A stretch of DNA of 64,000 nt from an uncultured Fibrobacterota bacterium (GTDB taxonomy: Bacteria; Fibrobacterota; Chitinivibrionia; Chitinivibrionales; FEN-1185). The translations under genes were made by a program, and so were the position numbers. The stretch covers positions 1-64,000 of the forward strand of contig CAVWBU010000021.1 of the NCBI GenBank assembly GCA_963753345.1, given 5' to 3'. Below, in pieces: positions 16,206 to 38,556 of the stretch (its first letter is position 1; the number at the start of each line of letters is the position of its first letter). The notes under the pieces are model-generated. The model made no database searches. It was not told the DNA's origin and saw only the letters and a program-made list of their open reading frames with translations.

Positions 16206-16264
16206 GAATCATAGTTTTGCCGATCATATCTACCATGATGGAAACGGCCTTCCGGAGGGGATAA

Positions 16265-16672
16265 ACCAACGATACTGTTCACCATCCCTCTCCGGTCTTT
16301 GCAGGCAAGGCTTCCCGCATTGACAAGTGGCTCCTGGAAAATCAGGGCAAGCATGCCTGCCAGTGCGGCTGTGGCCGTGTAATCCCAAATCGTCGTATAT
16401 ACCACAGTATAGGTATTCCCAACTTCATCTGGAAGCACCGTACCGCCAAACAAGCGCACTACGTTCACCAATACAATCAGCAGGGCCTCATCACCGTGGG
16501 AGAACTTTGCAGGCGTCTCCAGATCGGGCAGACGACGTACTATCGGTATAAGGGTAGGATTTATCGGGCTTCGAAGCGAAAAGGCAAAATACGGTTTTTT
16601 TCCGAAGACGATCTTCAGCGGATCCGTAGGATCCTGATCCGGGTTCCAAGACCGAAAGTGACTGGAACATAA
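16265..16672 (+). pseudogene. 5'-truncated gene with NQGKHxCxCGCG motif and C-terminal MerR/excisionase-like HTH (relic A)
   Basis: Open frame lacking an upstream start (missed by the ORF track): ...IDKWLLENQGKHACQCGCGRVIPNRRIYHSIGIPNFI...LITVGELCRRLQIGQTTYYRY...RKGKIRFFSEDDLQRIR; paralogous relics at 28056 and 33790. Confidence 0.75.
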
Positions 16673-16703
16673 TATCTTCGCCAAGGAAGGAGGACAACGT
16701 GAA

Positions 16704-16820
16704 ATCTTGAAGATACCTGTCCGTTCTGGTTTAAACCATCTTTAATTCAGGAAGGCGGCATAACGGATTGTATTTTTCCATAGGTCGTCTTAAAACATTG
16801 GAACATTAGGGCTGAGCATA
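16704..16820 (-). repeat. Relic 3' end of a Xer-like tyrosine recombinase plus palindrome (copy A)
   Basis: Minus strand reads YAQ..VLRRPMEKYNPLCRLPELKMV* (stop 16731-16733); ATCTTGAAGAT at 16704-16714; homologous to 28248-28331 and 30867-30958. Confidence 0.65.
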
Positions 16821-17017
16821 ATCTTGGAAGAACATTAACGCGCGTACGGACATTTTCTCTGTCAAATCGTCTTGAGGTCGAGCAACCGGTCATCACATTA
16901 ACCGACCACTGGTGATGTTGCTATCAGGAATAGAAACCTCTCGATGAGTTCAGGCATCCTCCAACTTGTTTCATCAAGTCGGCATCACGTGCCGATCGAA
17001 ACGGAAAGGAATCTTTC

Positions 17018-17353
17018 ATGGCTCACCAGTACTACGAAAGTGCGGATTTGGCCGATTTCCCCAACATCGGGGAATGTGCGCGCGACCAGGGAAAGGCCTT
17101 CTTCGACTACTATGGCTGCTCCACCACAGCGGGAAAGCTAACAGAGCGTGAAAAGTCTCTAATCGCTCTTGCCGTTGCCCATACCGAGCATTGCCCATAT
17201 TGTATTGACGCCTATACCACAAAGTGCCTTTCTCTCGGGCTCACGAGTGACGAAATGATGGAGGCGGTGCATGTGGGCGCATCAATGGTTGCCGGTGCAG
17301 TATTGGCCCATGCCACCCAAATGAGAAAAATCATCCGGAAGGATGAGATGTAG
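17018..17353 (+). CDS. AhpD/CMD-like protein associated with ArsS (arsenosugar-associated peroxidase-like)
   Basis: LTEREKSLIALAVAHTEHCPYCIDAY...MMEAVHV; directly upstream of arsS. Confidence 0.88.
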   Translation: MAHQYYESADLADFPNIGECARDQGKAFFDYYGCSTTAGKLTEREKSLIALAVAHTEHCPYCIDAYTTKCLSLGLTSDEMMEAVHVGASMVAGAVLAHATQMRKIIRKDEM

Positions 17354-17364
17354 CGCGGCCTGCG

Positions 17365-18354
17365 ATGGAACTACAAACTACCCCTTTTGAAAAGAAATTG
17401 CGGGCAGCATCGCTGGTCCCGCTTTTAAGCCAGGACATTGTCACCTTGCAGATAAATGTGGGGAGGCGTTGCAATCTCCAGTGCAAACATTGCCACGTTG
17501 ATGCTGGCCCGGCCCGGCCCGAGGTGATGGGGCGCGCGACGCTGGAAAAATGCCTGGCCGTTGCGGCTGCGCCATCCATAACCACTATCGATATTACCGG
17601 CGGCGCGCCGGAAATGAACCCACACGTTGGGTGGTTCATTGATGCCGCGGCCAAACTCGGGAAGCGGCTGATTGTGCGCTCCAACCTGATTATCCTTCTC
17701 GAAAAGGAATACGAATGTTTTGTGGATGTTTACGTACGCAACAGGGTGGAACTGGCCGCGTCGCTGCCGCACTGGAAGGCGGAGAAATGCGACCGCCAGC
17801 GCGGAACGGGCGTGTTCGACAAAGTTGTCAGCGTCATTCGGATGCTCAACGGCCGTGGGTACGGTCGTGAGGGCAGCGGGCTGGTTTTGGACCTGGTGCA
17901 CAATCCGATGGGATCGTTTCTGCCCGGACCGCAGTCCGCACTCGAACAGGAATACAAAGCCGAGCTGGCGACGGTTCACAGGATCACCTTTAATAAACTC
18001 TTTTGTCTTACCAATAGCCCGGTGGGCAGGTTCAAGGAGTATCTTTCCGCCAAGAGCGGCTATGAGGAATACATGGCGACGCTTGAGCGGGCATTCAATC
18101 TGTGCGCCGCGGAGAATGTGATGTGCCGCACCATGCTGTCTATCGGGTGGGACGGTGCAATTTACGATTGCGACTTCAACCAGATGCTCGGCCTCAAGGT
18201 GGACCATGCCGCGCCGAATCACATCGAGAAATTCGACCTGCGCGCCTTGCGGCAACGGCGGATCACGCTGGACGATCATTGCTATGCGTGCACTGCGGGG
18301 CAAGGGTCCTCGTGCCAAGGTGCCAGGGGAAACCCGGCATCGGTGAGCGCCTGA
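17365..18354 (+). CDS. arsS: Arsenosugar-biosynthesis radical SAM protein ArsS (Cys form)
   Basis: QINVGRRCNLQCKHCHVDAGP, DITGGAPEMNP, MCRTMLSIGWDGAIYDCDFNQML, HCYACTAGQGSSCQG. Confidence 0.9.
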   Translation: MELQTTPFEKKLRAASLVPLLSQDIVTLQINVGRRCNLQCKHCHVDAGPARPEVMGRATLEKCLAVAAAPSITTIDITGGAPEMNPHVGWFIDAAAKLGKRLIVRSNLIILLEKEYECFVDVYVRNRVELAASLPHWKAEKCDRQRGTGVFDKVVSVIRMLNGRGYGREGSGLVLDLVHNPMGSFLPGPQSALEQEYKAELATVHRITFNKLFCLTNSPVGRFKEYLSAKSGYEEYMATLERAFNLCAAENVMCRTMLSIGWDGAIYDCDFNQMLGLKVDHAAPNHIEKFDLRALRQRRITLDDHCYACTAGQGSSCQGARGNPASVSA

Positions 18355-18363
18355 CAGACCCTC

Positions 18364-20283
18364 ATGAATCCCACACTTTTTATCGCATTCTACGGGCTGG
18401 CATTTGTCGGCATGATCGGCGTGTGGCGTTTGTGGCCAAAACGCGGACCATTGTGGGCCGTCTTTCTCCTCGCCGTTGCTTTTCGCGCCGCGCTCCTGCC
18501 GCTTCCGGCCAATAGCGATGTGAACCGATATATATGGGAAGGGGAAGTCCAAAACGCCGGATATAATCCCTATGCGCTTGCGCCGGACTCGCCACGTCTG
18601 ACGGCACTTCGCGATGTTGCGTGGAAAGGCGTCAACCACAAGTCCGTGCCCGCCGGGTATGGTCCCGTTGCCGAAATCCTGTTCCGGTTGTGCACTGCAA
18701 GAACATCCTCGCCGCTCTTCTTCAAGACCATCTTTACCTTGTTCGATCTCGGCGTCATGCTTTTTCTGGCGCTGCTCATGCGCACTTGGTCAATGGAGCC
18801 AAGGCATCTTTTCCTCTATGCGCTTAATCCGCTCGTGTTGTACACAATAGCGGGAGAGGGGCATCTTGAAAGCGTCATGCTCTTCTGGATAGCAGGCTCT
18901 TTTTATTTCTTTCGCAAACAAAGGCATATCCTTACATTTCTTTTTTTCGGTTTGGCGTGCGCTACAAAGCTTACGCCGGTCTTATTGTTTCCGTTTTTGG
19001 TCAAGCGAAACAATGCGGCTTGGTCGATTCTAACGTTCGTGCCTCTTGGACTTTACGGATTGTATCTGGCCCCCGGCGTGTCGTTTCTTTCAGTACCGTT
19101 TCAATTTGCCACCATGTTTCATTTTAACGGGTTTGCCGCAACAATTCTCTCGTGGTTCATTCCCTTTTCACGGGTTCCTGTGGGTTGCCTCGCGCTGTTG
19201 ATTGTTGTGATGCTGTATCTGTTCTTCTTCACGTCGGATCGTTTACGCGCGTCATTTTACGCGGCCGGTGCATTTTTTCTGGTCTCGACAACCGCGCATC
19301 CTTGGTACCTGTTGCTTGCCACGATACTATTGCCGTTCTATCGGTCCCGGCCCTGGATTTTGCTGCATCTTACCGTTGGGTTTGTTGCCCTTGTCAACAT
19401 CAGATACTTGGAAACCGGCGTATGGAATGAATCACCACTATTGTGGGCTGCGGAATATATTCCCTTTGTCGCGCTGGCGCTGTGGGGCTTTGTCCGTGGC
19501 TCATCGTTTGCGCCGGCACAGTATCCGCCGCCCTCGTTTCTCTCAATAGTCATTCCGACGCTTAACGAACGAGAGAACATCGGCGATTGCATCGACGCCA
19601 TTATGCCGTGCGCGGAACTCGGCCACGAAGTGATCGTGGCGGACGGCGGATCGACCGACGGAACCCGTGACGTGCTCGGGGGCCGTCCGGCCGTGCGGGT
19701 CGTGACATCTGCGCAGGGGCGCGGCATTCAAATCCGGCAGGGTATTGCTGCGGCACAAGGAGACGTTATTCTCGTTTTGCATGCAGACTGCAGGCCGGAC
19801 AAAACCCTGATTTCCCTGCTCGCCGCCGTTCTTAGAAAAAGCCCGAATGTTTCCGGCGGCGCGTTTCGTGCGCGGTACCAAAGCGCGCGAAACCGGTATG
19901 CACTTACGTCGCTGCTTAACAGAAGCCGGACGATGCTCACCGGCATTTCTTTTGGCGACCAAGCGCAATTTTTTCGCACGGCGGCGATTGGAGGCCGTTT
20001 CCCAGCGTATAAAATAATGGAGGATTTAGAGCTTTCTTTTCTCATGAAAGAAAGCGGAGCGGTGGCATTCCTTCCGTGCAGCATAAGCAATTCGGTGCGA
20101 AAGTGGGAGCGGGACGGATATGTGCGAAATTGTTTTACTGTGTTGCGGCTCACCGCAAGGTATGTGCTTCAGCGAAGGTTTGGGCTTGTTTCAACGGATT
20201 GCGAGGACTACTATGCTCGCTATTATCAAGGAAAGCAAGGCCTGAAATGGAAAACGCAGGCGTCGTACGCCGCACGGTCATAG
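18364..20283 (+). CDS. Fusion of a polytopic GT-C (GT87-like) glycosyltransferase and a TIGR04283-type GT2
   Basis: N-half SDVNRYIWEG..Q.AGYNPY, YALNPL, EGHLES, HPWY; C-half SIVIPTLNE, VADGGSTDGT, LHAD, FGDQAQF, IMEDLE, S.RKWE. Confidence 0.82.
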   Translation: MNPTLFIAFYGLAFVGMIGVWRLWPKRGPLWAVFLLAVAFRAALLPLPANSDVNRYIWEGEVQNAGYNPYALAPDSPRLTALRDVAWKGVNHKSVPAGYGPVAEILFRLCTARTSSPLFFKTIFTLFDLGVMLFLALLMRTWSMEPRHLFLYALNPLVLYTIAGEGHLESVMLFWIAGSFYFFRKQRHILTFLFFGLACATKLTPVLLFPFLVKRNNAAWSILTFVPLGLYGLYLAPGVSFLSVPFQFATMFHFNGFAATILSWFIPFSRVPVGCLALLIVVMLYLFFFTSDRLRASFYAAGAFFLVSTTAHPWYLLLATILLPFYRSRPWILLHLTVGFVALVNIRYLETGVWNESPLLWAAEYIPFVALALWGFVRGSSFAPAQYPPPSFLSIVIPTLNERENIGDCIDAIMPCAELGHEVIVADGGSTDGTRDVLGGRPAVRVVTSAQGRGIQIRQGIAAAQGDVILVLHADCRPDKTLISLLAAVLRKSPNVSGGAFRARYQSARNRYALTSLLNRSRTMLTGISFGDQAQFFRTAAIGGRFPAYKIMEDLELSFLMKESGAVAFLPCSISNSVRKWERDGYVRNCFTVLRLTARYVLQRRFGLVSTDCEDYYARYYQGKQGLKWKTQASYAARS

Positions 20284-20864
20284 TATTTGCCAAGGAGCCC
20301 AGAAAGGGTTGCGTTAAAACGCGGATCGCCGCGACGCACGGCGACGATTGTGCGCTGGCAATTTACATTGCCATGCTGCAACGCACCGCACAGACACTCG
20401 TGCGGTTTCGCCATCATGTGGCATACACGGGCACGAAGGCCCCCAGCGATCTTGCCCGGTATTTTCCCAGGGCAACATCCTTTTTCCAGCAGCAGGGGAG
20501 AACGTTGGGGGAGCGCCAGAAGAGCGCGTTTCTGTACTGCGCAGAGCTTGGATACCAAAGGTTCTGTCTCATCGGATGTGATTGCCCCGGCCGCACCGGC
20601 GGGGACATCGCGGCTGCGTTCGCCGCACTTGACAATGGATACGACGCTGCAATCGGGCCGGCCGCCGACGGCGGCTACCATCTTATCGCCGGATCGGCCG
20701 CATGCACCGGACTTTTCGACGTGCAGGGCTGGAGCACGCCCCGTCTCCTTTCCGAAACGCTTGAAGCGGCAAAGCGGCTTGGGATTTGTTGTAGGTTGCT
20801 GGAACCAAGAAACGACATCGATACCTACGACGATTTCCTCGCATGGAAAGGCCGGGCGCGATGA
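20247..20864 (+). CDS. TIGR04282/DUF2064 (CofC-like) transferase of ArsS clusters
   Basis: IVFAKEP..G.VKTRI, QQGRTLGER, IGCDCP, IGPAADGGYHLI, WST, DIDTYDD. Confidence 0.88.
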   Translation: MENAGVVRRTVIVFAKEPRKGCVKTRIAATHGDDCALAIYIAMLQRTAQTLVRFRHHVAYTGTKAPSDLARYFPRATSFFQQQGRTLGERQKSAFLYCAELGYQRFCLIGCDCPGRTGGDIAAAFAALDNGYDAAIGPAADGGYHLIAGSAACTGLFDVQGWSTPRLLSETLEAAKRLGICCRLLEPRNDIDTYDDFLAWKGRAR

Positions 20865-23275
20865 AATTTCCGTTTCTCTATTTTGGCTGGCTCCAGAAGG
20901 ACAACCCCTGCGGCACGGTGGAACGGCTGCCCGAACTTACCGACCGGTTCGAAACGTCGGTGCCGGGCCTTTATTGCATCGGCGACCTCACCGGTGTCCC
21001 TCTTATCAAACTTGCCGCGGAATCGGGCAACAGGTTCATGGAGCAATTGTCTGCCGACGAGAAGTTCGCCGCGGAGCGGAACCGGAAAGCCGGCGATGTC
21101 TACGACCTGATCATCATCGGCGCCGGGCCTTCGGGCGTGTCGGCGGGAATCCGAGCCATGGAATTCGGTTATAAACATCTGATTGTCGAGTCGTCGCGTG
21201 CGTTCAACACCATCAACAACTTTCCGGCAGCTAAACCTATCTACGTGACGCCGGCAGGCCCGGTAAAATCGCCGCTTGCGTTTACCGATGGCACCAAGGA
21301 AACCCTTATAGAGCAGTTGTACTCGGGTATGGCCGTACATAACATCACGCTTCACGAAGGTGAAATGGTCAAAGGCATCACCGGGAGCTTGGGCCGTTTC
21401 TCCGTGGAAACCTCGGCAGCGACATACAAGGCGCTGAGGGTGGTGATTGCAATTGGTAAGACCGGCGCAACCCGGTCGCTAGGCGTTCCCGGTGAAAGTT
21501 TTCCAAAAGTTCTCTCACGACTTATCGACCCGGGCCTGCACCACGGGCAGGATATTCTCGTTGTAGGTGGCGGTGACAGTGCAGTCGAGGCCGCAGTCGC
21601 GCTTGCAAAGAGCGGCAACCGTGTCACCCTGTCATATCGCAAAGCCGCCCTAGGCAGGCCCAAAGAGCAAATCCTGAAGAGCTTCAACGATCTGGTGCAA
21701 GCAGGCGCTATAACGCCCCTGTTTGAATCCCAGGTCAAGCAGATACGCGAAACCGACGTGTTGCTTTCAACAAGGCGCGGCGATACTGCTATTCCCAACA
21801 ATGTCGTTTTTGTCTTGATCGGCTCAGCGCCGCCCGTCGGGTTCCTCAAGAAATCTGGAGTGCGGCTGCAGGGCAAATACGATTTGTCATACAAGGTCGC
21901 GCTGGCCGTGTTCTTATTCTTCGCGATAATGCTTTACTTTGGAAAAAAAGCTCCGGCCACTGCCGTCTCCAGCCTCATGGATTTTTGGCGATTGCCTCTG
22001 GCGCTGGCTGGCTTTGCGTGGCCGCAGCAAGTAGACGTCCTGGCAGCCTGGCTCGGATTTGTTTGCTTTACGATAGCGGGGCTTCTGTTCGGGGTGTACT
22101 TCTTATGGAAGAACGCACGAAGAGCAACGGGGGCTTGGAACGGTTTCAAGCTCGGTTACTATTTTGCGATGTCGGTTCTTGTTTGTTACCTTTACATAGC
22201 GTATAAGCTTCTTGCGCGGCATCCGCTGTTTGGTGACATGGGCGACTGGTATACCGCGTTGTACTCCCTTACCATTGTGATCTTCGGGGTCCGGCGCATC
22301 TACAGGAGGGGTACCGGATATATTACCAGGCAAACGCTCGTACTCATGGCATTCCAGGTACTGCCGCTGTTCGTCCTCCCGTTATTTGTGCTTCCGTACA
22401 TGGGGTCGCATCACCTGCTGCCGGCCTGGATCATGGAAACGGTTTTTCCAGGACAATCCTACTGGCGCGCATTCGGATTTGTCTTGGCGTGGCCGCTTTT
22501 CATTTACAACGCGGCAACGGGTACGCCCACCATGTTTTGGCTGGTCTTAGGAATTCTTCAGACCTTTGTTATTGTTCCGTTCATAGTTTACAAATGGGGC
22601 AAAGGCGCATACTGCGGCTGGGTATGCCCATGTGGGGCAATGGCGGAATCCCTTGGGGACGAGCATCGGACTCGTGCGCTGCACGGCCCGACCGCCAAAA
22701 AAGCAGAGAATTCCGGGCAAGCTGTGCTGTGGTTTGCCGCAGTGGTCACCCTGGCGAGCCTTGCCGCAGGGTCCGGTGGACGCGGTTCAAACAACGCGCT
22801 CGAAGCGTATGGCATCATCGTCGATATCATCCTCGCGGGCGTGATCGGCCTGGGTGCATATTTCCATTTCTCGGGCCGTGTCTGGTGCAGGTTTTTTTGT
22901 CCGCTTGCGGCGCTCATGCATATTTACGCCCGTTTCTCACCCTACCGCATCATGGCGAACAAAAAGCGCTGTATCTCGTGCAATATCTGCACCAAAGTTT
23001 GTCATATGGGAATCGATGTGATGAACTTCGCAAATAAGGGCATTCCCATGAACGATGTGCAATGCGTTCGCTGCAGCGCGTGTATCGTGAATTGCCCCTT
23101 GCAAGTGCTCACGTTCGGCACTGTGGGATCCGCTGATCTTGAAAATAAGAAGTATAGGAAAACCTGGTTCCCGCTGTCGCGGGGCTGGCAAAGCGGGCAT
23201 TTGCAAAAGGACATCGACATGCTGCTTACGGAAGAGGAAACCCAATCGCAATCAGCGATTTTCAGCCCACCGTAA
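20861..23275 (+). CDS. YpdA/TrxB-like FAD oxidoreductase fused to a membrane NapH/MauN-like 4Fe-4S domain
   Basis: IIGAGPSG, VVGGGDSAVEAA; many TM helices; YCGWVCPCG, WCRFFCP, CISCNICTKVC, CVRCSACIVNCP. Confidence 0.85.
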   Translation: MKFPFLYFGWLQKDNPCGTVERLPELTDRFETSVPGLYCIGDLTGVPLIKLAAESGNRFMEQLSADEKFAAERNRKAGDVYDLIIIGAGPSGVSAGIRAMEFGYKHLIVESSRAFNTINNFPAAKPIYVTPAGPVKSPLAFTDGTKETLIEQLYSGMAVHNITLHEGEMVKGITGSLGRFSVETSAATYKALRVVIAIGKTGATRSLGVPGESFPKVLSRLIDPGLHHGQDILVVGGGDSAVEAAVALAKSGNRVTLSYRKAALGRPKEQILKSFNDLVQAGAITPLFESQVKQIRETDVLLSTRRGDTAIPNNVVFVLIGSAPPVGFLKKSGVRLQGKYDLSYKVALAVFLFFAIMLYFGKKAPATAVSSLMDFWRLPLALAGFAWPQQVDVLAAWLGFVCFTIAGLLFGVYFLWKNARRATGAWNGFKLGYYFAMSVLVCYLYIAYKLLARHPLFGDMGDWYTALYSLTIVIFGVRRIYRRGTGYITRQTLVLMAFQVLPLFVLPLFVLPYMGSHHLLPAWIMETVFPGQSYWRAFGFVLAWPLFIYNAATGTPTMFWLVLGILQTFVIVPFIVYKWGKGAYCGWVCPCGAMAESLGDEHRTRALHGPTAKKAENSGQAVLWFAAVVTLASLAAGSGGRGSNNALEAYGIIVDIILAGVIGLGAYFHFSGRVWCRFFCPLAALMHIYARFSPYRIMANKKRCISCNICTKVCHMGIDVMNFANKGIPMNDVQCVRCSACIVNCPLQVLTFGTVGSADLENKKYRKTWFPLSRGWQSGHLQKDIDMLLTEEETQSQSAIFSPP

Positions 23276-23290
23276 TTTCATCCGCGGCAC

Positions 23291-23740
23291 TCACTTCGCC
23301 AAATCGAATTTTGCCCGAATCGTCTCCATGCGTTTGCGGTTGACTCCCATGTCGCCGTAACCGAGCCGTGAGGCCGACCTGAATTGAATGGTTTTTGCGC
23401 TGTCGTCGAACACGAACTCCACATCGTCGACAAATCGCCACAGAAACGAAGTGAATTCAACATCGAGATAGGTGCCTGTGTCCGAAATAATTCTGGTGCG
23501 GGGGAAAGAATCGATCACGCGGATGAGCTTTTGCTTCGCATTGATGCTGGTCCCCGAGTAGGACAATGGTTTGATGGCGTGAGTCTTGTCGGATGCAAAC
23601 GTCGATACGCAGTTGGGTGATTCGGGGCATGGCGCGAGTGTCCCGTCGTGCACGCCGAGGTTGGAGGGGCGCGTTCCGGAGCACATACACACGGCCGCAA
23701 GAAGGCCGCAGCCAAGGACTTTTGTAAACGTCCGATTCAT
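23291..23740 (-). CDS. DUF1499 family lipoprotein
   Basis: LAPCPESPNCVST, FVDDVEF, RSASRLGYGDMGVNRKR. Confidence 0.88.
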   Translation of the reverse strand: MNRTFTKVLGCGLLAAVCMCSGTRPSNLGVHDGTLAPCPESPNCVSTFASDKTHAIKPLSYSGTSINAKQKLIRVIDSFPRTRIISDTGTYLDVEFTSFLWRFVDDVEFVFDDSAKTIQFRSASRLGYGDMGVNRKRMETIRAKFDLAK

Positions 23741-23766
23741 TTCCTGCTCCTTTGAAAAAGCAAACT

Positions 23767-24510
23767 TCACGGGCACCTATCCACTTTGTTGAGCGACCAG
23801 TCGTATTTGTTAAAATGAACGTCTGGTCCCACCGGACGTGCCAGAGTAGCCGCAATAAACGATGAAAAGGACCCGAAACGTTTCTTGAAGTCGTCGCCAT
23901 ACCATTCAAAAATCTTCGAAACCCGCATGGAATGATTCGTGAAGGTGTTCCGGGTGGTGTCCGCGAGAAAGATGGAGGCGGCGCGCTTGAATTGCGCGTC
24001 GAGGCTGTCTCCGGTATATGGCGTGCCCTGCAAAACCGGACAGCTTTTTGATGCGCACACAAGCGCGAAATGAATGCGCGGGTCTTCGAACTGCTTTCGA
24101 AGAATATCGGTTTCGAGGTTGTCAAGCGACACCGTGTCGCCGAACAGCGGTATGAACTTGACTCCCCACGGATTTGGAATGTCCCTGATGCCCGTTTTGA
24201 GGGGGAGGTGGCGCACGACAAGGTCGATGGTGTACAAGTTGTAAAGGTTGATGTAGTAGGCGATTTGACCGTTGCCGGAAAGTGCGGAGACGCCGGCACG
24301 GCTCACTGAACTCAATTCGGTCCTGGCCTTTTCCAGGATCCGGGGATTTTTCGCAAGCACATCGTAAGCGACACCTCCCCGGCACACATATCCAGAGAGC
24401 AAGGCGCCATAGTCGCGGTACAAAGGACCGGAACCGAACACCAAGCCGGAAATGGAAATGATTGATAAAGAAGATAACGTGAAAAGAGCCGTGAGCTTCA
24501 TCACCGCCAC
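23767..24510 (-). CDS. DUF547 family secreted protein
   Basis: AYYINLYN, SLDNLE..ILR, DPRIHFALVCASKSCP, SKIFEWYGDDF, YDWSLN. Confidence 0.9.
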   Translation of the reverse strand: MAVMKLTALFTLSSLSIISISGLVFGSGPLYRDYGALLSGYVCRGGVAYDVLAKNPRILEKARTELSSVSRAGVSALSGNGQIAYYINLYNLYTIDLVVRHLPLKTGIRDIPNPWGVKFIPLFGDTVSLDNLETDILRKQFEDPRIHFALVCASKSCPVLQGTPYTGDSLDAQFKRAASIFLADTTRNTFTNHSMRVSKIFEWYGDDFKKRFGSFSSFIAATLARPVGPDVHFNKYDWSLNKVDRCP

Positions 24511-24552
24511 CTTAATTGAACATTTGCGGTTTCTGGCTATGCAGATGATCGT

Positions 24553-25260: not shown

Positions 25261-25377
25261 GAAAGCCTCCCTTGTGTGTGGGCAAAAAAGACCATGCGTC
25301 TTGCCGACAGTGCTTTGGCGCGAACAGTGTTCCAGCCGACGCGTCATTTCCATCCGGAACTTCTTTGAGCCAAAGCC

Positions 25378-25875: not shown

Positions 25876-26091
25876 GCGACCCCCGTGCCTTGACCTGTTT
25901 GGAAACTCTGTATTTAGCTTCCTAGGCATGCCTGCAACCTTCGCGCCCCTTAAGTTCGGGTTTTGTTGGAAGGATATTCGAGAAGAGCGTATTTGAATAA
26001 TAGCGTGTTTCAACTACCAAAAATACCTGATATCGAAATTGGCAATATCAAAGGTTCGAGACTCTGTCCCGACCTTTACTTTCGGCCGAGT

Positions 26092-26739
26092 TTACGGCCT
26101 TGCCTTTTTTGCGGCATTCATTAAATCGTCGGGATTGACACGGACCTTAATGTCAGGATTAAAATAGACGAAATGAATGACGCCCTTTTGGTCCACCACA
26201 TAGGCGGCCGGTACCGGCAGCATGTGAAGGTTGTTACCGGTACTTGAATCCAGCGATATGCCGCGGTTTTGCATTTTTGTTAGGGTTTCTTGGCTTACTC
26301 GGTAGGCCAATCCGAATTTCCGGGTAATTTCCATTGAGCGATCCGAGAGCAGAGTATAGTTGATGTGATGCTTGCCCAAACTTTCCTTAAGGTTCTGCGG
26401 TTTGTCTGGACTTATAGCCAATATCTGATAACCCATTTCTGTCAATTTTGGTTCAATCTTTACCAATTGGTCCATCTGCAGATTGCAGAAAGGGCACCAG
26501 CCTCCTCGGTAAAAAATCAGGACACTTGGTTTTTGAGCAATGAGCTTCCTCAACTCCACATCCTTGCCTTTAATGGTTGAGAGAATTCCATCCGGCACTG
26601 AATCTCCGACAGCCAGGGGATGAACTTCTTGGGCTGTAAGCGGTACGGGATTTTCTTGGGAAGCAGCCATGACGATTCCTCCAGATACAACCACCAAAAA
26701 CAAAATCCCAATGGAACAGGTTAAAAACATTTTGCGCAT
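26092..26739 (-). CDS. Exported AhpC/TSA peroxiredoxin-like protein
   Basis: LIFYRGGWCPFCN, AISPD, LPVPAAYVVD. Confidence 0.88.
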   Translation of the reverse strand: MRKMFLTCSIGILFLVVVSGGIVMAASQENPVPLTAQEVHPLAVGDSVPDGILSTIKGKDVELRKLIAQKPSVLIFYRGGWCPFCNLQMDQLVKIEPKLTEMGYQILAISPDKPQNLKESLGKHHINYTLLSDRSMEITRKFGLAYRVSQETLTKMQNRGISLDSSTGNNLHMLPVPAAYVVDQKGVIHFVYFNPDIKVRVNPDDLMNAAKKARP

Positions 26740-26778
26740 TTGTCACTCCATGGATCTTGAGACGTATTCTGTTTGAGG

Positions 26779-27882
26779 CTACTTTTTAAACATGGCGGTG
26801 AATTCTCCATAGCCCTCCTTCTCCAAATCTTTTGCAGGCAGGAACCGCAGGGCCGCGGAATCGATGCAATATCGCAAATGTGCTGGCGGAGGACCATCGT
26901 TGAATAGATCTCCCAAATGCGAATTGCCGATGCGGCTATGAACCTCGGACCCGGTCGTCGCCACCGCGGCATGATTGGTTTCCACGACATTTTCCTTGAC
27001 CAATGGTTTGGTGAAACTCGGCCAGCCGGTGCCGGACTCAAACTTGTCTTTTGAGCTGAAGAGCGGTTCGCCGGTAACGATGTCCACATAAATGCCGTCT
27101 TCGTGGTTATTCCAATATGCATTCTTGAACGGCGGTTCGGTTTCTTTTTCTCGCTGGGTGACTTGATACTCAAGGGGAGACAACAGCTTCTTGAGAACCG
27201 AATCAGGGGGTTTTGAGAAAGCAGTCACGGTAACGGTATCGGCTTTCCAGCCTTTATCTTTCCACGTTTTCTCCAGGAACTGGTCCCGTCCGGAGCCGTT
27301 TCGGTATCGGTGGTAATCGCCCGGATTTTTCAAATAGTAGTCCTGGTGATAGCCCTCTGCTTCGTAAAAAGTGGTAGCGGGGATGATCCTGGTAGCAACC
27401 GCTTTATTTCCAAATACCCCTGCATGTTCTAGGCTCATCTTCGTCGCCTCGGCTAGCGTTCTCTGTTGAAGGGTGTGGTAAAAAATTACCGATTGATATT
27501 GGGGGCCACGGTCAACAAACTGGCCGCCTCCATCTGTTGGATCATTGGATCTCCAGAAGGCATTCAGAAGTTGCAAATAGCTAATTTTTCTAGGATCATA
27601 GGTTAATTGGATCGACTCCATGTGGCCGGTTCCTCCGGCGCCAACCTCATGATAAGTCGGATTCGCCTTTGTTCCGCCGGTATAACCAGCCAACACCTTG
27701 ATGACCCCGCTGAGCTTTTCAAAGGGTGGTTCCATGCACCAGAAACATCCGCCGGCAAATGTCGCGGTTGCTGCATCTTTTGAAAAAACCGGAACAGTGG
27801 CTTTTGTGCCCTCTTCTGACGATGAGTTGCCGGAACAGGAGAGAGCCATGGCGCAGAGAACAACTTCAGGTGTGAATCTCAT
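26779..27882 (-). CDS. msrAB: Bifunctional methionine sulfoxide reductase MsrA-MsrB, lipoprotein
   Basis: FAGGCFWC, AEGYHQDYY, KFESGTGWPSF, HLG, RYCIDS; LSC lipobox. Confidence 0.92.
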   Translation of the reverse strand: MRFTPEVVLCAMALSCSGNSSSEEGTKATVPVFSKDAATATFAGGCFWCMEPPFEKLSGVIKVLAGYTGGTKANPTYHEVGAGGTGHMESIQLTYDPRKISYLQLLNAFWRSNDPTDGGGQFVDRGPQYQSVIFYHTLQQRTLAEATKMSLEHAGVFGNKAVATRIIPATTFYEAEGYHQDYYLKNPGDYHRYRNGSGRDQFLEKTWKDKGWKADTVTVTAFSKPPDSVLKKLLSPLEYQVTQREKETEPPFKNAYWNNHEDGIYVDIVTGEPLFSSKDKFESGTGWPSFTKPLVKENVVETNHAAVATTGSEVHSRIGNSHLGDLFNDGPPPAHLRYCIDSAALRFLPAKDLEKEGYGEFTAMFKK

Positions 27883-28055
27883 TGATAAGACCTCTTTATG
27901 TGCACCGCAATGCACTATAATACGGTGCTTGACTGGGCGCGCAAACACGGTATTCATTACCGCCTGCTTATAGGTAATTATTCCGCAATTCACATGCCAA
28001 GCCCCAGGTTTTGTATTTCTACAATCAAATTGGCGAATGTGGCATTCAAATTGGC

Positions 28056-28175
28056 TACGAGGGCGTGCTTTACCGGGCTGCAAAGCGGAAAGGCAAGGTA
28101 CGAATTTTTTCCGAAGAGGATCTTCAGCGGATACGCAAGGCCCTGATCCGGGTTCCAAGACTCAAAATAGCAGAT
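28056..28175 (+). pseudogene. MerR/Xis-like HTH relic B
   Basis: YEGVLYRAAKRKGKVRIFSEEDLQRIRKALIRVPRLK; paralogous to the 3' parts of 16265-16672 and 33790-34020. Confidence 0.7.
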
Positions 28176-28247
28176 ACGGAATCTTTTCGCCAAATAAAGA
28201 AAAAAGGATTTTGCTTATCCTAAACCCCGCCGCTTGGAACGGCGAAC

Positions 28248-28331
28248 CATCTTGAAGATGCCTGTCCTTGTGGTTTACGCCATCATTATTTCAGAAAGGC
28301 GGCATAACGGATGGTATTTTTCCAAAGGACG
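28248..28331 (-). repeat. Relic recombinase 3' end plus palindrome (copy B)
   Basis: RPLEKYHPLCRLSEIMMA* (stop 28275-28277); CATCTTGAAGATG at 28248-28260. Confidence 0.65.
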
Positions 28332-28437
28332 CGGCCTCAAATCCCGCGAACAGAGCGACAACCCGGGCCACAACCCTTACGCCTCCTGAAACATGAAAAT
28401 TCTTCACAGCAACAGAACTCCCTTCACTTTGTGAAAG

Positions 28438-28683
28438 CTACCTGATGATGGTAACGCATTTTGCCACAGGACCGCCCTGTGATGTCAACCGCATGAGGCA
28501 GGCCCCCGGTTTGAGATTTATCGCATCGAGCGGAACGGAATTGACGCCTGTGGCAGCGCTGTTTCCGGCCATCTCGGCGATTTTATCACCCCGTATGGAA
28601 TAGACCGTCAAAAGGAATTTGCCCGGGCTTGAAAGCGTGAAAAACACTTTTCCTTTACACGTGCTTGATCCAATAGCAACCAT
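28438..28683 (-). pseudogene. Orphan T9SS-like C-terminal domain
   Basis: LTVYSIRGDKIAEM...LKPGACLMRL...VTIIR with no signal peptide or cargo domain. Confidence 0.55.
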
Positions 28684-28885
28684 AGCCGTTGGCGGTTGAG
28701 CCGCATATATTATTATATAACCATATTAACAAAGTGAATAAATTGTGTGCCCGGATGCTAGCTCTATTTCTTATGTTTATGAGCGAGCCGGTCGGCGATC
28801 TAGTCTGTCATGGTCGATCATCGTGATTGATTGCACGGCATTGACCTTGGTACAGCGCCCCGCAAACGAATAGAAGAGGATTTCC

Positions 28886-30445
28886 ATGAGAACGCGATGC
28901 AGTATATCCCTTGGAGAAGCGTTATTGCTGTGTGCAATAGTCTGCCTATTGATATGCAGAGTCGAATCGGTTGTAGCTGCGAGCGGGCCCGGTGATGTGG
29001 TTGGAAAAGTTACCGTGGGGTACCAGGGCTGGTTTGCCTGCATAGGCGATGGCGCTCCAATAAACGGCTGGTGGCATTGGGCCAACAATTGGGGACAGCC
29101 GCCGTCTCCGACCAATCAGGGCATTAAGAGCTGGCCCGACATGAGTGAATATGCCAAGAGCTATCAAACCGCCTATGCTAATCTCGGCAACGGACAGCTT
29201 GCGAAATTGTTTTCTTCCTTCGATCAATCAACGGTAACCCCCCATTTTTTCTGGATGCAGAAATACGGTATCGACTGCGCAGCCTTGCAGCGCTTCAACC
29301 CGGATGGCGGGGAAGGTCCTACCCGCGATTCCATGGCAGTAAAGGTAAGGGCAGCGGCGGAAACCTACGGTGTAAAGTTCTATATCATGTACGATGCCAC
29401 CGGCTGGACCAACATGCAAACCGAAATGAAGACCGATTGGACAAGCAAAATGTCGGCGCTGACCTCTTCACCGATGTATGCGAAACAAAACGGCAAGCCC
29501 GTCGTTTGCATCTGGGGTTTCGGCTTTAACGATTCCAATCATCCGTGGGACTCCGCAACATGCCTGGATGTCGTTACCTGGTTCAAAGGCCAGGGCTGCT
29601 ACGTTATCGGCGGCGTGCCGCGGGAATGGCGCACCGGAACCGGCGGATCCAGGTCCGGCTGCCTTAGCGTGTATCACGCCTTCAACATGCTTTCGCCTTG
29701 GTTGATCGGTGCGTTTGGCGACTCGAACGGAGCGAACGGCATTCATTCCAATTTCATCGTGCCGGATCAGGCGGATTGCAACGCCAACGGCATCGATTAT
29801 CAGCCGTGTGTTTTGCCCGGGGACAATTCCTTACGTCAACGGGTCCATGGCAACCTCATGTGGCTCGAGTTCTATAACGCGATTCGTGCGGGATGCCAGG
29901 GGATCTACATTTCAATGTTTGATGAATTCAATGAAGGCAATCAGATTGCCAAGACCGCCCAAGATGCCTCAACCATACCCGCCGGCGCCACGTTTATCGG
30001 TCTGAGCGATGAGGACGGCACTGCGTGTTCGTCCGATTATTACCTGCGACTCACTGGCGACGGCGGCAGGATGCTCAAGGGCCAAATTGCGTTGACGGCC
30101 GTTCGCCCCACTCAACCGATGGCTGCGGCCGGCGTTTCCTCTCGCGAGAAACTATCCGTTTTTTCGGACGCCTGCAGTTTCAGAGTTTTGACATCGCGCA
30201 ATGGCGCCCGAATCGAGTATTCGGCGCCGTTTGACAATAGCGGCGTCGAGGTGAACATCATGACATGTGCAGGCCGCGTCGTCTGGCGTTTCCATGGTGC
30301 GTGCATCGGAGACGGATTGCATTCGGTAGACTGGAATGCTGGCCCACATTCACCCGGAGCGTATGTTGTCAAAATGACGTTTACGGGAAGAAACGTCGAC
30401 GATTATGCCTCACGAAGCGAGAAATGCATTCTGTTCTCACGGTAA
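28886..30445 (+). CDS. Secreted GH71/GH99-like glycoside hydrolase with T9SS-like CTD
   Basis: VGYQGWF, WPDMSEY, WM.KYGID..LQRF, MYD, NGKPVVCIWGFGF, YISMFDEFNEG.QIAK, SDYYLRL. Confidence 0.8.
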   Translation: MRTRCSISLGEALLLCAIVCLLICRVESVVAASGPGDVVGKVTVGYQGWFACIGDGAPINGWWHWANNWGQPPSPTNQGIKSWPDMSEYAKSYQTAYANLGNGQLAKLFSSFDQSTVTPHFFWMQKYGIDCAALQRFNPDGGEGPTRDSMAVKVRAAAETYGVKFYIMYDATGWTNMQTEMKTDWTSKMSALTSSPMYAKQNGKPVVCIWGFGFNDSNHPWDSATCLDVVTWFKGQGCYVIGGVPREWRTGTGGSRSGCLSVYHAFNMLSPWLIGAFGDSNGANGIHSNFIVPDQADCNANGIDYQPCVLPGDNSLRQRVHGNLMWLEFYNAIRAGCQGIYISMFDEFNEGNQIAKTAQDASTIPAGATFIGLSDEDGTACSSDYYLRLTGDGGRMLKGQIALTAVRPTQPMAAAGVSSREKLSVFSDACSFRVLTSRNGARIEYSAPFDNSGVEVNIMTCAGRVVWRFHGACIGDGLHSVDWNAGPHSPGAYVVKMTFTGRNVDDYASRSEKCILFSR

Positions 30446-30512
30446 CCTACCGCTCCACTGCCTGCGTTCACTTGGGGCCGCAAAACGGGGCTCAACGTTT
30501 GCGAATAAGAAA

Positions 30513-30551
30513 AAGGAACCCCTTCCACATAGTGGCGGAGAGGCAGGGATT
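30513..30551 (-). repeat. att site: direct repeat of the tRNA-Ser 3' end and flank
   Basis: 30528-30551 CATAGTGGCGGAGAGGCAGGGATT is identical to 45958-45981; 36 of 39 bp match over 30513-30551. Confidence 0.88.
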
Positions 30552-30620
30552 GGCTTCGCCCAAGCCTCATTTACATTCGGCTTTCGAAAAGTTCTTGCAT
30601 TGTCAAGCCCCTCGGCCAAA

Positions 30621-30686
30621 ATAATATGCCCCAATCACGAAACAAGAGTGTGATCGGGGCATATTATGGCGGAGAGGATGGGATTC
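30621..30686 (-). repeat. Second tRNA-Ser-like 3' fragment followed by a terminator hairpin
   Basis: TGGCGGAGAGGATGGGATTC (30667-30686, 2 mismatches to the tRNA); 18-bp stem 30621-30667 with one G-U pair and a short U-run on the minus strand. Confidence 0.75.
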
Positions 30687-30866
30687 CTCGCCATGATCCG
30701 TAAGCTGTTGATTCTACCTATAGTCTCTGTCTGACTGCATCAAAACTGCACCAAACGCAACCGCAAATAACACGAAACTTTGAGAAGTAACGAGGAGAAA
30801 AATAGATGGTTTCACAAGCAATATAAACATCTTCTCTAGAGTGTGGTTATCGACCCCAGAAGATAG

Positions 30867-30958
30867 GAACCATCTTGAAGAGGTGTGTCCTTTCCGGTTT
30901 ACACCATCATTGTTTCAGGAAGACGGCATAACGGATGGCATTTTTCCGTAGGTCGCAG
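30867..30958 (-). repeat. Relic recombinase 3' end plus palindrome (copy D)
   Basis: LRPTEKCHPLCRLPETMMV* (stop 30899-30901); GAACCATCTTGAAGAG. Confidence 0.65.
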
Positions 30959-31104
30959 CAGTAGAAAAACTGGACAATAAAATTCCCTTGGCTTCAACTT
31001 AGAAAAACCCTTGAAGGCCGCGCACTTATCTGTGAATCGGCACATTCATGGGGTTTCTATTTCAGCTTGCGCCTTAAAGATGGCAGCGGCCGCGCAAGAG
31101 TTTC

Positions 31105-33528
31105 CTACCTGATCGCCACGGTCCTCACAATCATGGTGGATCCGCAAATGATCCGAGCGATGTAGGCCCCGTGCGTAAGCTTTGCCGACAGCGGCAGCGC
31201 ATGGGTTTGAGCCGCGGAAACATTCCATTGACCGACAATCCTGCCAAGGTAGTCGAACAGCGCGACTGACATCTGCTTGGCGTTGGCCGCGTTGAGTTTC
31301 GCAGTATTGACAATGAGGAACCCGTTTCTGACTGTTACCACGTCCATACTGCTTGGTGATGCATGGCGCAATTCGGTCTTCACACTCAGTGCGTCGCTGT
31401 AGTCGGGATATGAACCCGAACTGGTGGTATACACGTTATCTGCGACCGGAAAGAGGCGCACCGGCTGGTCTCCTGCGATATTGGCCTGGAAAACAGGCCC
31501 GGCCATCATGTCGTCAACAGCGAGAGTAACGAATCTTACGCCGGGGGTCATTAGGGTATATGATGCTCCTCCCACGCAGCTGCTCAGCGACTGGGGCGGA
31601 TGATCGGAGAGCCATGTGGCCACAGGCTCCGGGTGCTCGGTCGCAGATGCGAAAATATCTGCCTGCGCAAGCACTGGCACGCCCTGGTTCTCGTAGAGCG
31701 CCGCGATGGACGAGGGAAGCGAGTCCTGCTCAAGAGCCACAAGCGAATATTTTTTGTCGACAAAGCCCACGCTGGAGGCAATCGAGGTGGGCATCTGCGC
31801 CGTGAGCGGGACCAGATATGCCGACGAGCCGATCAGCCGGGCGTACTGCATGCCGTTTGCGATTTTCACCAGCCGGGGCGATTCGGTGAACTGGGCGACC
31901 GCGTTCGTTCCCTGGAGCACGGTCCACTTTATTTTCTTGACGAGCGGCTGGTCGCTGTACAGGTGCATGTCGGTTGTCTGCTGCGCGGAACAATAGGTAT
32001 ACCCTGACGAAGAGGACGACAGGACCTGGATGCTGGCTGTGTCGGTTCCGTTGCCCACGACCGCATACACATTCAGCCGCGGGTGGTTTCTCTGCATAAA
32101 CCCGTTGATGTCTGCTCCCGGCCAGTAGGCCTGTGAAAGGGGCATGGTGATTGTTGAATCGATTTCCCTTTCACCCAATAAGGAGGACAGCATGTTCACG
32201 TCGATTGTCGAATCCCAGGCTATAATCTGAGCCGCCGCATAAATCGACACCAGCTGCGGGCCCGCGGTGAGGATCAGCAGGTGCCGGAGCGATGCAACGT
32301 CATTTTCAAAGAGGTCCAAGGCCGCTTGAACCGCTGCGTTGAATTCCTGCAACTCGGCTGCGGTGTCGATCGGGAGGTTCAATTGCTTGTAGCTGGAAGA
32401 CAGCGGGGGATCAACCACTGCCTGGCTTTTAAGCGAATCGAGATATGCAAGCATACGGTTGAATTCGGGTCCGCCCTGTTTGTCAAAGTGAAATATGATC
32501 GGGCTCTGCCCCTCTTTCGAAATGATGAGCGCAGCCCGTTTGTTCGTGGAATTGAGGGTAGAAAGGAATCTCGTGAGCACCGTGGACTGTTCCACGATCT
32601 GGCGGGCGTACCGAGCAAGGATTTTCGGGTGGTTCCACCGCCACAGGACGACGTAATCCTCCTTGACAGACGACTGGGCCAGCGCCTCCTCGGCGGTCAT
32701 GGTGGTGATATGGCACATCTCACCACCGAAGGACGGGGCGGAGAATGAACCGCTGTATATGGTCGACCCGTTGGACGCATTGGAAGGTATGGGAATTATA
32801 TACGATATTTGTTGGCCGGCCGATGTGCCATACGCCTCAAAGGAATACACCGTATTGTCAAGTGTGACGGGCGTGGTATTGTCATATTGCTTTTTCGACC
32901 GGGACGCCTCGACCAGGTATCCCGAAACCCCCTGCCCCTTCTTGATGTTAACAACCGGATTGGCCGTGAACGAGTAGGGATAGGCGATTTTATTGACCCC
33001 GTCGATGTCAAAGGCGGGAATCAAATATCTAATGCGGACGGTGCGGGTCGAGTCGAATGTCGCCGGGAAAATGGAGATGTAGTAGTTGTCGTCGCCCCAT
33101 CCGTATTCAAAAAGAACCGGGTCACAGGGAGGCGGTGGACACGCTGCGCTGCGGTCGACCACGCTATCGTACTGCTGCTTCGCGATTGAATCCGTCTTCA
33201 GTTTTGCCTTGAGGATTTTGCCCTTGTACCAAGTGATCAGGCTGACCACGGTGGAATGCGCATCGAGGTTGAGGTTTCCCACGATTTCCAGCGCGTTTCT
33301 GAAGGAATCGGGCGGGGTGCCGCCTACCTTGAAGACCCATTCAAGGTCGACATCGAGATAATCCGGATGCACCGTAATGTCGAATTTCTCCTGGATGATC
33401 GTCGCCGTTCCTTGCCACGCAGTCCCCTGAGTAGATTGGCTTCTGAAGACTCCGTGCTGCAGACCAATGGCATGAGACCCGGCAACGAAGAGCAAAACTC
33501 CTGATACCATACAATACAGCTTTTTCAT
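31105..33528 (-). CDS. Large secreted protein: VIT-like N-terminal domain, degenerate vWA-like region, T9SS-like CTD
   Basis: Signal peptide; AKQQYDSVV...DPVLFE...YYISIFP....RTVRIRY (VIT-like); HLLILTAG; LFDYLGRIV...GAYIARI. Confidence 0.65.
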   Translation of the reverse strand: MKKLYCMVSGVLLFVAGSHAIGLQHGVFRSQSTQGTAWQGTATIIQEKFDITVHPDYLDVDLEWVFKVGGTPPDSFRNALEIVGNLNLDAHSTVVSLITWYKGKILKAKLKTDSIAKQQYDSVVDRSAACPPPPCDPVLFEYGWGDDNYYISIFPATFDSTRTVRIRYLIPAFDIDGVNKIAYPYSFTANPVVNIKKGQGVSGYLVEASRSKKQYDNTTPVTLDNTVYSFEAYGTSAGQQISYIIPIPSNASNGSTIYSGSFSAPSFGGEMCHITTMTAEEALAQSSVKEDYVVLWRWNHPKILARYARQIVEQSTVLTRFLSTLNSTNKRAALIISKEGQSPIIFHFDKQGGPEFNRMLAYLDSLKSQAVVDPPLSSSYKQLNLPIDTAAELQEFNAAVQAALDLFENDVASLRHLLILTAGPQLVSIYAAAQIIAWDSTIDVNMLSSLLGEREIDSTITMPLSQAYWPGADINGFMQRNHPRLNVYAVVGNGTDTASIQVLSSSSSGYTYCSAQQTTDMHLYSDQPLVKKIKWTVLQGTNAVAQFTESPRLVKIANGMQYARLIGSSAYLVPLTAQMPTSIASSVGFVDKKYSLVALEQDSLPSSIAALYENQGVPVLAQADIFASATEHPEPVATWLSDHPPQSLSSCVGGASYTLMTPGVRFVTLAVDDMMAGPVFQANIAGDQPVRLFPVADNVYTTSSGSYPDYSDALSVKTELRHASPSSMDVVTVRNGFLIVNTAKLNAANAKQMSVALFDYLGRIVGQWNVSAAQTHALPLSAKLTHGAYIARIICGSTMIVRTVAIR

Positions 33529-33789
33529 GGTAACCACCTTTGGGTAAAAGGACGAAAGCCTTGGATCGTGGCTTTGATTGCGTCATGAAGAAAACGCGGC
33601 AAAATTGATGCTCTGCAACAATTGTCGGTGAAACATTGCTCTTGGTTCAAACAAAGTTTGAGCTTTGCATTAGGCAATCTTGAGAACAAGCACATATGGA
33701 CGTGGGGTTTTTCCTACCCTTTACACAGTCCACAACCCCGTGACGCCCAATTGACTTGTGCCATATCTATGGGATGACCTATTGGGTCT

Positions 33790-34020
33790 CGCCAAACAAG
33801 CGCACTACGTTCACCAGTACAATCAACAGGGTTTCATCACGGTAGGCGAGCTATGCAAACGTCTCGGGATCGGGCAGACGACTTATTATCGTTATGAGGG
33901 TGTGCTTTATGGGGCTGCAAAACGAAAGGGCAAGATACGGGTTTTTCCGATGAGGATTTCCAGAGAATACGCGAGGCCTTGATCCGGGTTCCAAGACTCA
34001 AAGTAGCCGGTGCTACCTAG
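33790..34020 (+). pseudogene. MerR/Xis-like HTH relic C, frameshifted
   Basis: AKQAHYVHQYNQQGFITVGELCKRLGIGQTTYYRYEG...KIRVF, 1-nt loss in a T-run near 33945, then DEDFQRIREALIRVPRLK. Confidence 0.75.
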
Positions 34021-35864: not shown

Positions 35865-35879
35865 GGTTTCAAGCAGGAG

Positions 35880-38544: not shown

Positions 38545-38556
38545 GCATGACGTATT

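Follow-up and report, generated by a model that had tools for sequence, protein, structure and literature searches.

Overview of the locus and its repeat families

The stretch examined here, referred to as the window, comprises 64,000 nucleotides (nt) of one contig (C21:1-64000) in the assembly of an uncultured Fibrobacterota bacterium (G000; 55 contigs, 4.52 Mb). Within it lies a variable island block of 29.6 kb (16234-45822), located between a thioredoxin-TPR gene and a segment proximal to a tRNA-Ser(cga) gene (45963-46054, minus strand) that anchors the island. All of the window's copies of two short repeat families, R and L, are contained in this block. The original prediction had taken these families for the conserved ends of cargo cassettes stacked by a new gene-capture system; here they are read as probable scars of decayed integrative elements.

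Three copies of each family were found in the window, in a single shared orientation, as had been predicted and as a repeat search and BLASTN confirmed, with an nhmmer profile doing the same for L. R was located at 16250-16672, 28056-28178 and 33764-34011, and L at 16703-16792, 28247-28339 and 30870-30959 (nhmmer profile). The first R had been placed at 16265; the repeat is present there, and its unit starts at 16250. The repeat search, which covered 14-36 kb, delimited L as 16704-16787, 28248-28331 and 30872-30955 (ungapped identity 70-83%). It also returned overlapping R families (16444-16600/33790-33946, 16551-16691/28060-28200 and a 66-nt core common to all three copies), located at 16444-16691, 28060-28200 and 33790-34007. 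No inverted pairs were reported among the R and L repeats of this region, which were direct throughout. When the repeats were queried against the whole assembly, BLASTN matches between copies had E-values of 1e-19 to 1e-49. The R-L junctions were as originally described (16672-16704 and 28175-28248), with a gap of 32 nt at 16672-16704 and of about 70 nt at 28178-28247.

The BLASTN comparison with the genome that had been suggested as a check also returned copies outside of the window. Further L copies were located at C32:199379, C32:223994, C12:10841, C46:54652 and C21:236862, and further R copies at C32:199014 (left end only), C32:200593 and C32:212550. C12 and the end of C32 are variants of one sequence (C12 against C32:223951-228178, 4.2 kb at 99.1% identity), which leaves seven independent L loci. 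This similarity may reflect strain heterogeneity in the bin or a recent duplication. Of the seven independent L loci, five lie in two regions, C21:16-34 kb and C32:199-224 kb, as does every one of the six R copies, with a single orientation in each region; R and L are therefore clustered and not randomly scattered.

R and the large serine recombinases

R1 (16250-16672, plus strand) is the most complete of the relics and corresponds to the C-terminal Cys-motif and helix-turn-helix (HTH) module of a large-serine-recombinase-type gene. Its conserved left terminus lies at 16250 and is followed by a 12-bp inverted repeat at 16252-16298. The reading frame is open from 16265 to 16672, but it lacks a usable start codon, there being no ATG, GTG or TTG before 16496, and the N-terminal part seen in the homologues would be in another frame. 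The conceptual product contains a CxCGCG...H...H motif and then an HTH. R2 (28056-28178, plus strand) is 5'-truncated and consists of the last ~40 codons of R alone. R3 (33764-34011, plus strand) retains the last ~75 codons, is frameshifted and has no L behind it. With the C32 copies being fragments, every R copy in the genome is broken, and in-frame stops were also present in the R copies of a related genome (G005, contig C56) and of a metagenome locus (L039).

R1 matched no family above cut-off in Pfam, PHROG or NCBIfam, with weak matches to HTH_17, HTH_7, MerR_1 and excisionase families, and a word-index search returned only four close relatives (133-234 amino acids, aa). A profile was built from five sequences (R1-type plus these four relatives) and searched against 1.84 billion representatives, matching 422 proteins at E <= 0.001. 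Of the best 150 of these 422, 44 were scanned against Pfam (all 41 of at least 300 aa and three shorter ones). All nine proteins of at least 600 aa among the best 150 carried Resolvase and Recombinase domains, most of them also Zn_ribbon_recom. R aligned as a single stretch at the C-terminus of these nine and was followed in most by a further MerR-type HTH; the R-matched recombinases were 650-830 aa long. Pairwise BLASTP of R1 against the nine gave E-values of 1e-13 to 1e-18 (29-41% identity over 75-116 residues), and overall 13 of 13 tested proteins matched (E 1e-13 to 1e-22). The other proteins among the 44 scanned included two in which an N-terminal part of comM (ChlI and the first 36 Mg_chelatase positions) was fused to R, one tyrosine integrase, and 14 HNH-, NUMOD3- or Vsr-type nucleases in which the Cys motif alone matched, mostly in 2-5 stretches.

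By homology, R is a relic of the C-terminal module of a large serine recombinase, made up of the Cys motif and a MerR/excisionase-like HTH. The original prediction had seen relics of a tyrosine-recombinase element. A recombinase relic is indeed present in the form of R, but the proteins related to it belong to the large serine class and not to the tyrosine class. Separately, the CxCGCG...H motif occurred in 2-5 stretches in most of P0006, P0007, P0018, P0020, P0023, P0061 and others (HNH, NUMOD3, Vsr/DUF559), and it looks like an undescribed modular DNA-binding motif of nucleases and recombinases.

The intact parent that the prediction called for was absent: tblastn with R across the genome gave broken copies only. 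Neither Resolvase (PF00239) nor Recombinase (PF07508) had a match in the genome, and R is therefore a fragment homologue and not an enzyme. Since the genome holds neither an intact parent nor a Resolvase domain, there is no evidence of a working system. Among 81 genomes of the order, R was present in three, all of one genus.

L as a MITE-like half element

L1 (16703-16792, plus strand) lies 30 nt downstream of the R1 stop codon and is the non-coding half of an inverted-repeat element resembling a miniature inverted-repeat transposable element (MITE). The closest copy to L2 (28247-28339, plus strand) was found in G005:C44 (93%), rather than in L1 or L3. L3 (30870-30959, plus strand) is a solo copy, situated 186 nt inside att2 (a repeat of the tRNA-Ser end, see below), and its closest copy is C32:223994 (95%).

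L had been predicted to be the 3' end of a recombinase gene, with the three copies sharing a stop codon. In the eight copies of the genome, the open stretches terminated by L were 27-115 codons long and the frame varied between copies; across 20 loci from six genomes the longest was 165 codons, and the frames again varied. A coding gene end was rejected, with no open reading frame (ORF) longer than 165 aa being closed by any of the eight genome copies or 20 loci. Substitutions between copies fell at all codon positions with no third-position bias, as judged by eye, and nothing like the L peptide was found at the end of the genome's eight tyrosine recombinases. The shared stop codon is a property of the alignment and no evidence of coding.

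The conserved part of L is approximately 60 nt long, with a sharp right border (...TTTTTCCATAGGNCG) and a left extent that is variable. Some copies have an inverted partner ~100 nt upstream, giving whole elements of ~120-165 bp with terminal inverted repeats of ~25-30 bp. Five full elements were found in three genomes (C46:54595-54729, C21:236790-236913, two in G033 and one in L053); all three window copies are right halves only. L was present in six of 41 related genomes, including 12 matches in G033, which is without R. An exact-pattern scan of 185,579 species genomes placed it in eight stretches from four metagenome-assembled genomes, all labelled Fibrobacteres/Chitinivibrionales/Chitinispirillaceae, and a 26-nt degenerate pattern had no match in the viruses of IMG/VR. 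An end-sequence search of G000 and the 81 genomes of the order, limited by contig ends, found no autonomous partner with L-type ends. A 141-nt identity between two contig ends of G005 was considered as a sign of an autonomous transposon and rejected as a probable assembly-graph overlap. From these features L is best described as half of a lineage-specific MITE-like repeat.

It is extremely improbable that L is instead a structured small RNA or a regulatory site. The strong conservation of the 60-nt core across families of the order would suit such a role, but Rfam matches in the 64 kb were to tRNA only, the consensus fold of 19 sequences had three invariant pairs (-1.35 kcal/mol) with no compensatory change, single-sequence folds were mutually inconsistent, and L had no fixed placement relative to neighbouring genes.

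Borders of the tRNA-Ser island and strain variation

The last 19 nt of the tRNA-Ser gene matched three times, against 0.01 matches expected. The copy att1 (30533-30551, plus strand) has ~18 nt of tRNA-downstream-like flank to its left, and att2 (30667-30685, plus strand) is a second 3'-end copy that forms the distal border of a 15.3 kb island (30686-45962). In G001, which is the closest relative and whose thioredoxin-TPR gene is 92% identical, window position 16233 is joined to 45824 with 5 nt between them, ~125 nt from a tRNA-Ser. On the basis of this junction, 16234-45822 is one variable block that contains all of the relics. R1 marks the outer edge of this block, starting 16 nt in from the breakpoint. 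A Pfam scan of 44 ORFs found no integrase between 8.3 and 49.5 kb, a genome-wide search for PF00589 gave eight matches with none on contig C21, and a 246-aa ORF beside the tRNA-Ser had no match in Pfam, PHROG or NCBIfam. Base composition did not set the island apart (GC 0.46-0.58, flanks 0.47-0.60).

Four public runs (X1-X4) were compared with the window over 15500-35000, using assembled contigs only. Contigs of X1 and X4 ran from 28665 to 30686 and then into tRNA sequence, and thus represent an empty site for the 15.3 kb island. There was no depth over 31124-35000 in the four runs. The contigs of all four followed the first block of genes behind L1 (cargo 1) and departed from the window sequence exactly at 28042, and one X4 contig had a thioredoxin-TPR-R1 arrangement identical to that of the window. 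In a 390-nt contig of X1, a full-length R was joined at 100% identity to 28059-28260. Because this contig carries a full-length R at that joint, the truncation of R2 is a deletion relative to a co-occurring variant. The same joint, which appears to skip from 16509 to 28059, was rejected as a deletion or circle junction, since it reflects a full-length homologous copy of R, one side of which is 84% identical to R1. The claim that the relics stand at block boundaries, stacked beside a tRNA-Ser island, is supported.

Blocks between the repeats

Cargo 1 (16793-28042) holds about 10 ORFs on both strands, which were assigned by Pfam to a CMD-family gene, a radical-SAM/DUF3641 (ArsS-like) gene, GT2, a flavoprotein-ferredoxin oxidoreductase, glyoxalase, peroxiredoxin and MsrAB. 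It had been described as an ArsS cluster with redox genes, of ~11.4 kb, and the block is indeed discrete: homology with G005 spans 16742-28042 (an 11.3 kb block), and 28042 is where the contigs of the four runs diverge. The block is common to G005 (86-89%), G001 (85-90%) and G004 (81-83%). In G005 it is preceded by an L half, with a copy of the att2 flank and the thioredoxin-TPR gene further upstream.

A GH99-like gene (28886-30445, plus strand; weak Pfam match) follows L2 and had been taken as the cargo of a cassette ending in an att site. The gene and att1 instead belong to the chromosome flanking the tRNA-Ser attachment site; in G002, too, the gene is on the tRNA side. Between L3 and R3 lies a gene for an 810-aa secreted protein (31105-33537, minus strand) with weak matches to VIT and to the tail of type IX secretion system (T9SS) substrates.

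Elsewhere in the window, an intergenic element of ~125 nt was found at 38553-38681, between a solute-binding-protein gene and a MarR gene. Dozens of copies at 75-90% identity occurred in five of five congeneric genomes searched, making it a second and much more abundant family of small repeats. Outside of the island, a citrate synthase was split over the adjacent ORFs 8371-9075 and 9072-9530 (Pfam positions 1-203 and 223-356), which may be a frameshift or an assembly error.

The R-L unit, its left end and its occurrence elsewhere

The metagenome locus L039 holds a complete R-L unit, with window positions 16242-16787 matching L039 9998-10546 at 79% over 549 nt, and R and L thus travelled as one piece of ~0.55 kb. 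The left end of R (TTCCGG...GATAAACC; TTCCGG.G.GGATAAACCAACG) was seen in four contexts and in one orientation (the window, C32:199014, L039 and L042), and no inverted copy, which would make R-L an element with terminal inverted repeats, was found in the genome or the examined loci. In L042 a comM gene that breaks off in its Walker A codons stands immediately before the left end (...GGAACCGG / GCTTCCGG...). In the genome itself, comM (C30) is uninterrupted through the Walker A site. A search for a comM remnant to the left of R1 was also made and the candidate rejected, L039 having a similarity of 26 nt at 77% (E 0.15) and the window nothing significant. The variant at C32:199014-199461 combines the same left end with a different, broken MerR-type HTH and L. 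Contigs of run X4 have an extra base (T or C) after 16295, within the inverted repeat of the R left end, and may stem from a C32-type copy.

The second array of R and L, on C32, lies inside a classical tRNA-Phe island, with the tRNA-Phe gene at 186609-186683 and a tyrosine integrase at 186773-187951 (392 aa); a 46-nt repeat of the tRNA end is present on the end of contig C23. This island (C32:186609-228178 plus the C23 end) carries many glycoside hydrolases and a ThsB-TIR-like gene (L045:6067-6615). The R-L unit of L039 lies inside a two-island array at another tRNA-Ser, tRNA-Ser(tga). That locus (2826-2912/16350-16436 and 9321-9508/16092-16291) has an att repeat at 92% identity and, internally, a decayed att; DUF6515 genes are duplicated to either side of the tRNA.

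Origin of the island

The block at 16234-45822 is interpreted, with a probability of about 0.6, as a patchwork island at tRNA-Ser that was built by the successive arrival and decay of integrative elements, R and L being its non-functional scars. Several elements would have arrived serially beside the tRNA-Ser and then decayed, a process of accretion. The crossover site of the R-type recombinase family would lie just upstream of the R piece, and an integrated element would keep R, reading inward, at one edge, matching R1, which is complete to its left terminus. Deletion of the catalytic part of the gene would leave the internal R2 and R3 5'-truncated. In the ancestral elements the L half-element would have sat just downstream of the recombinase stop codon, and it also occurs alone elsewhere. 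Serial integration and decay fits the att repeats, the empty sites, the lack of an integration gene, and the combination of a complete outer R with 5'-truncated inner ones. L1, L2 and L3 are 83-88% alike and the R copies 75-83% alike, no closer to each other than to copies elsewhere, and for this reason separate arrivals are favoured over a recent local duplication. The relics would thus have come with separate elements and been trimmed by deletions.

Several observations weigh against this interpretation. No serine-recombinase catalytic part is present in the genome (0 Resolvase and 0 Recombinase matches), so that R homology is the sole link to this enzyme class, and R was absent from the serine recombinases of related genomes at the 11 loci examined. 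Two of these 11 loci adjoin comM 3' fragments, on the opposite strand, and so do not show a split arrangement. The att repeats are of the type left behind by tyrosine integrases that target tRNA genes, a different enzyme class, which means that two kinds of element are needed. L3 and R3 stand in the opposite order to R-L, which takes additional deletions to explain. To the left of R1 there is no comM; a remnant of it could comprise ~14 nt at most (CATGATGGAAACGG), and the similarity is not significant. Around the five full L copies there was no clear target-site duplication, and the inverted symmetry of one copy extends outward. Cargo 1 also stands behind the thioredoxin-TPR gene and an L half in G005 and could be old shared synteny; its identity above that of the flanks (86-89% vs 69-83%) would be only a moderate hint of transfer.

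Three other explanations were weighed. The copies might have arisen within the genome, through segmental duplication and homologous recombination between R-L repeats and with no separate arrivals. This would account for direct repeats in a single orientation, and L-L recombination would give what is seen at att2, where an att2-like segment leads to L and cargo 1 in G005 and att2 leads to L3 and the VIT gene here. It is unlikely, given that the copies most similar to those of the window lie elsewhere and that the regions between the copies are without shared homology. Alternatively, R-L could be a small (~0.45-0.55 kb) non-autonomous mobile unit of left end, small HTH gene and L, inserted repeatedly and independently of cargo. 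Its borders are sharp and conserved between the window and L039 (16242-16787 and 9998-10546), two variants have both ends in common and different middles, and L has a transposon-like terminal repeat. The left end is never inverted, no target duplication was seen, and only about four left ends exist in all of the data. This end is moreover serine-recombinase coding sequence (profile positions 9-20 align), and its joint with comM at the Walker A codons suggests that a larger element recombined site-specifically, which makes a small mobile unit quite unlikely.

The explanation closest to the original prediction, in which a trans-acting recombinase still captures and stacks non-autonomous cassettes whose conserved ends are R and L, integron-like without attC sites, is very improbable. 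It would agree with the relics being in a single orientation at block borders, with a second array of the same kind on C32, with strain-variable breakpoints at 16243, 28042, 28665 and 30686, and with the variant at C32:199014-199461 that keeps the left end and L with a different HTH gene. Every R copy of the clade seen as DNA is nonetheless broken or truncated (window, C32, G005:C56, L039), there is no recombinase on the contig and no serine recombinase in the genome, and L is also found by itself in genomes that lack R, and its orientation to neighbouring genes varies. The copies are old, being 75-88% alike, and the sole joint across cargo 1 in public contigs is a homologous R copy and not an excision product. 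The contig also has no integrase and no hairpin recombination sites, and the blocks hold multiple genes on both strands, none of which corresponds to integron-like accretion. Serial arrival and decay of integrative elements at the tRNA-Ser thus remains the preferred reading of the island.

Reciprocal fusions of serine recombinases and comM

The comM'::R proteins predicted a reciprocal product, and the N-terminal 600 residues of an intact R-bearing enzyme (P0060) were therefore used as a search query. Among 92 matches, two (P0227, 877 aa; P0233, 858 aa) consisted of Resolvase, Recombinase, Zn_ribbon_recom, Mg_chelatase and Mg_chelatase_C. Their fusion junctions (...LGK/TMLARR and ...EGK/TLLSRC, the slash marking the joint) are at the Walker A lysine of comM. 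P0060 itself has SGK at residues 586-588; its alignment with P0227 runs to the junction (...GK/TMLA, residue 586-587) and its alignment with the comM'::R protein P0031 starts at residue 584. In other members this position, equally far ahead of the Cys motif, is occupied by GTGKS or PPGTAG. P0227, P0233, P0031, P0054 and P0060, which come from other phyla, present reciprocal in-frame serine recombinase/comM fusions at the Walker A Gly-Lys codons, and L042 has the same comM-R junction at the DNA level in a relative of the window organism.

Because the fusion junctions match the SGK position of P0060, a putative attP is placed inside the recombinase ORF, and both genes would be partitioned by integration. 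At somewhat less than even odds, the R-bearing large serine recombinases may be bacterial 'suicide' integrases whose attP, inside their own ORF, mimics the comM Walker A codons, and the R relics of the window may be Int(C) pieces. Integration would cut both genes at the Gly-Lys codons, yielding comM'::R at one border and recombinase(catalytic)::'comM at the other; where copies stand in tandem, every internal junction would restore a complete integrase.

Genes of the comM type are known to be favoured by large serine recombinases: they are reported as the targets of 12.4% of predicted site-specific ones (PMC10083194), and sr1WO of phage WO targets a comM-type gene (PMC9203015). According to a review, only archaea have integrases that their own attP partitions (PMC8371274). 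Searches of the main text of open-access articles brought up no account of serine integrases split in this way.

The window result mostly clarifies, in that an apparent capture system is an eroded island mosaic, from a lineage that has been little studied. With R, a C-terminal module of large serine recombinases is defined that has no annotation and no Pfam family above cut-off, and the comM fusions, being reciprocal, suggest that integration splits the genes of some serine integrases. If true, split integrases would bear on element directionality, on domestication and on the automated finding of attachment sites for large serine recombinases.

Comparison with known systems

The likeness to integrons is a superficial one, of same-orientation repeats between unrelated genes; the window is without IntI, attI, attC hairpins and single-ORF promoterless cassettes. 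No inverted repeats of at least 25 nt were found in 14-36 kb, and the L alignment had three pairs with no covariation. The L elements resemble MITEs in being short, non-coding, multi-copy, intergenic, in either orientation and bounded by terminal inverted repeats. They differ from MITEs in that neither a clear target-site duplication nor an autonomous partner was found, in that most copies are halves, and in the fixed distance of three L halves behind an HTH gene.

Large serine recombinases that target comM have the C-terminal module to which R is homologous, and the R unit of a relative abuts the comM Walker A codons; in the window the enzyme domains are absent and the gene tail alone is present, at a non-comM site. 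The archaeal SSV-type 'suicidal' tyrosine integrases are alike in that the gene is partitioned on integration, with Int(C) at one border, as the fusion proteins imply, and they differ in enzyme class and in domain of life.

Also similar are the tandem accretion islands at tRNA and tmRNA genes, some of whose members are decayed and cis-mobilizable (Dehalococcoides ssrA; ICESt1-type). In these, several blocks likewise lie downstream of one small-RNA gene, are separated by 3'-end direct repeats, in some cases lack integration genes, and vary in content between strains. The tandem ssrA islands of Dehalococcoides are described as formed by accretion, many without integration modules, and their integrase is a serine recombinase (PMC3146451). 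The window differs in having no surviving integration module at all, in having scars that comprise a recombinase C-terminal fragment and a MITE-like half in addition to att repeats, and in the position of R1-L1 and R2-L2, which are farther out than any att repeat that can be recognised. The idea of a new gene-capture system is not supported; the window holds an island mosaic of a known kind that has decayed and varies between strains.

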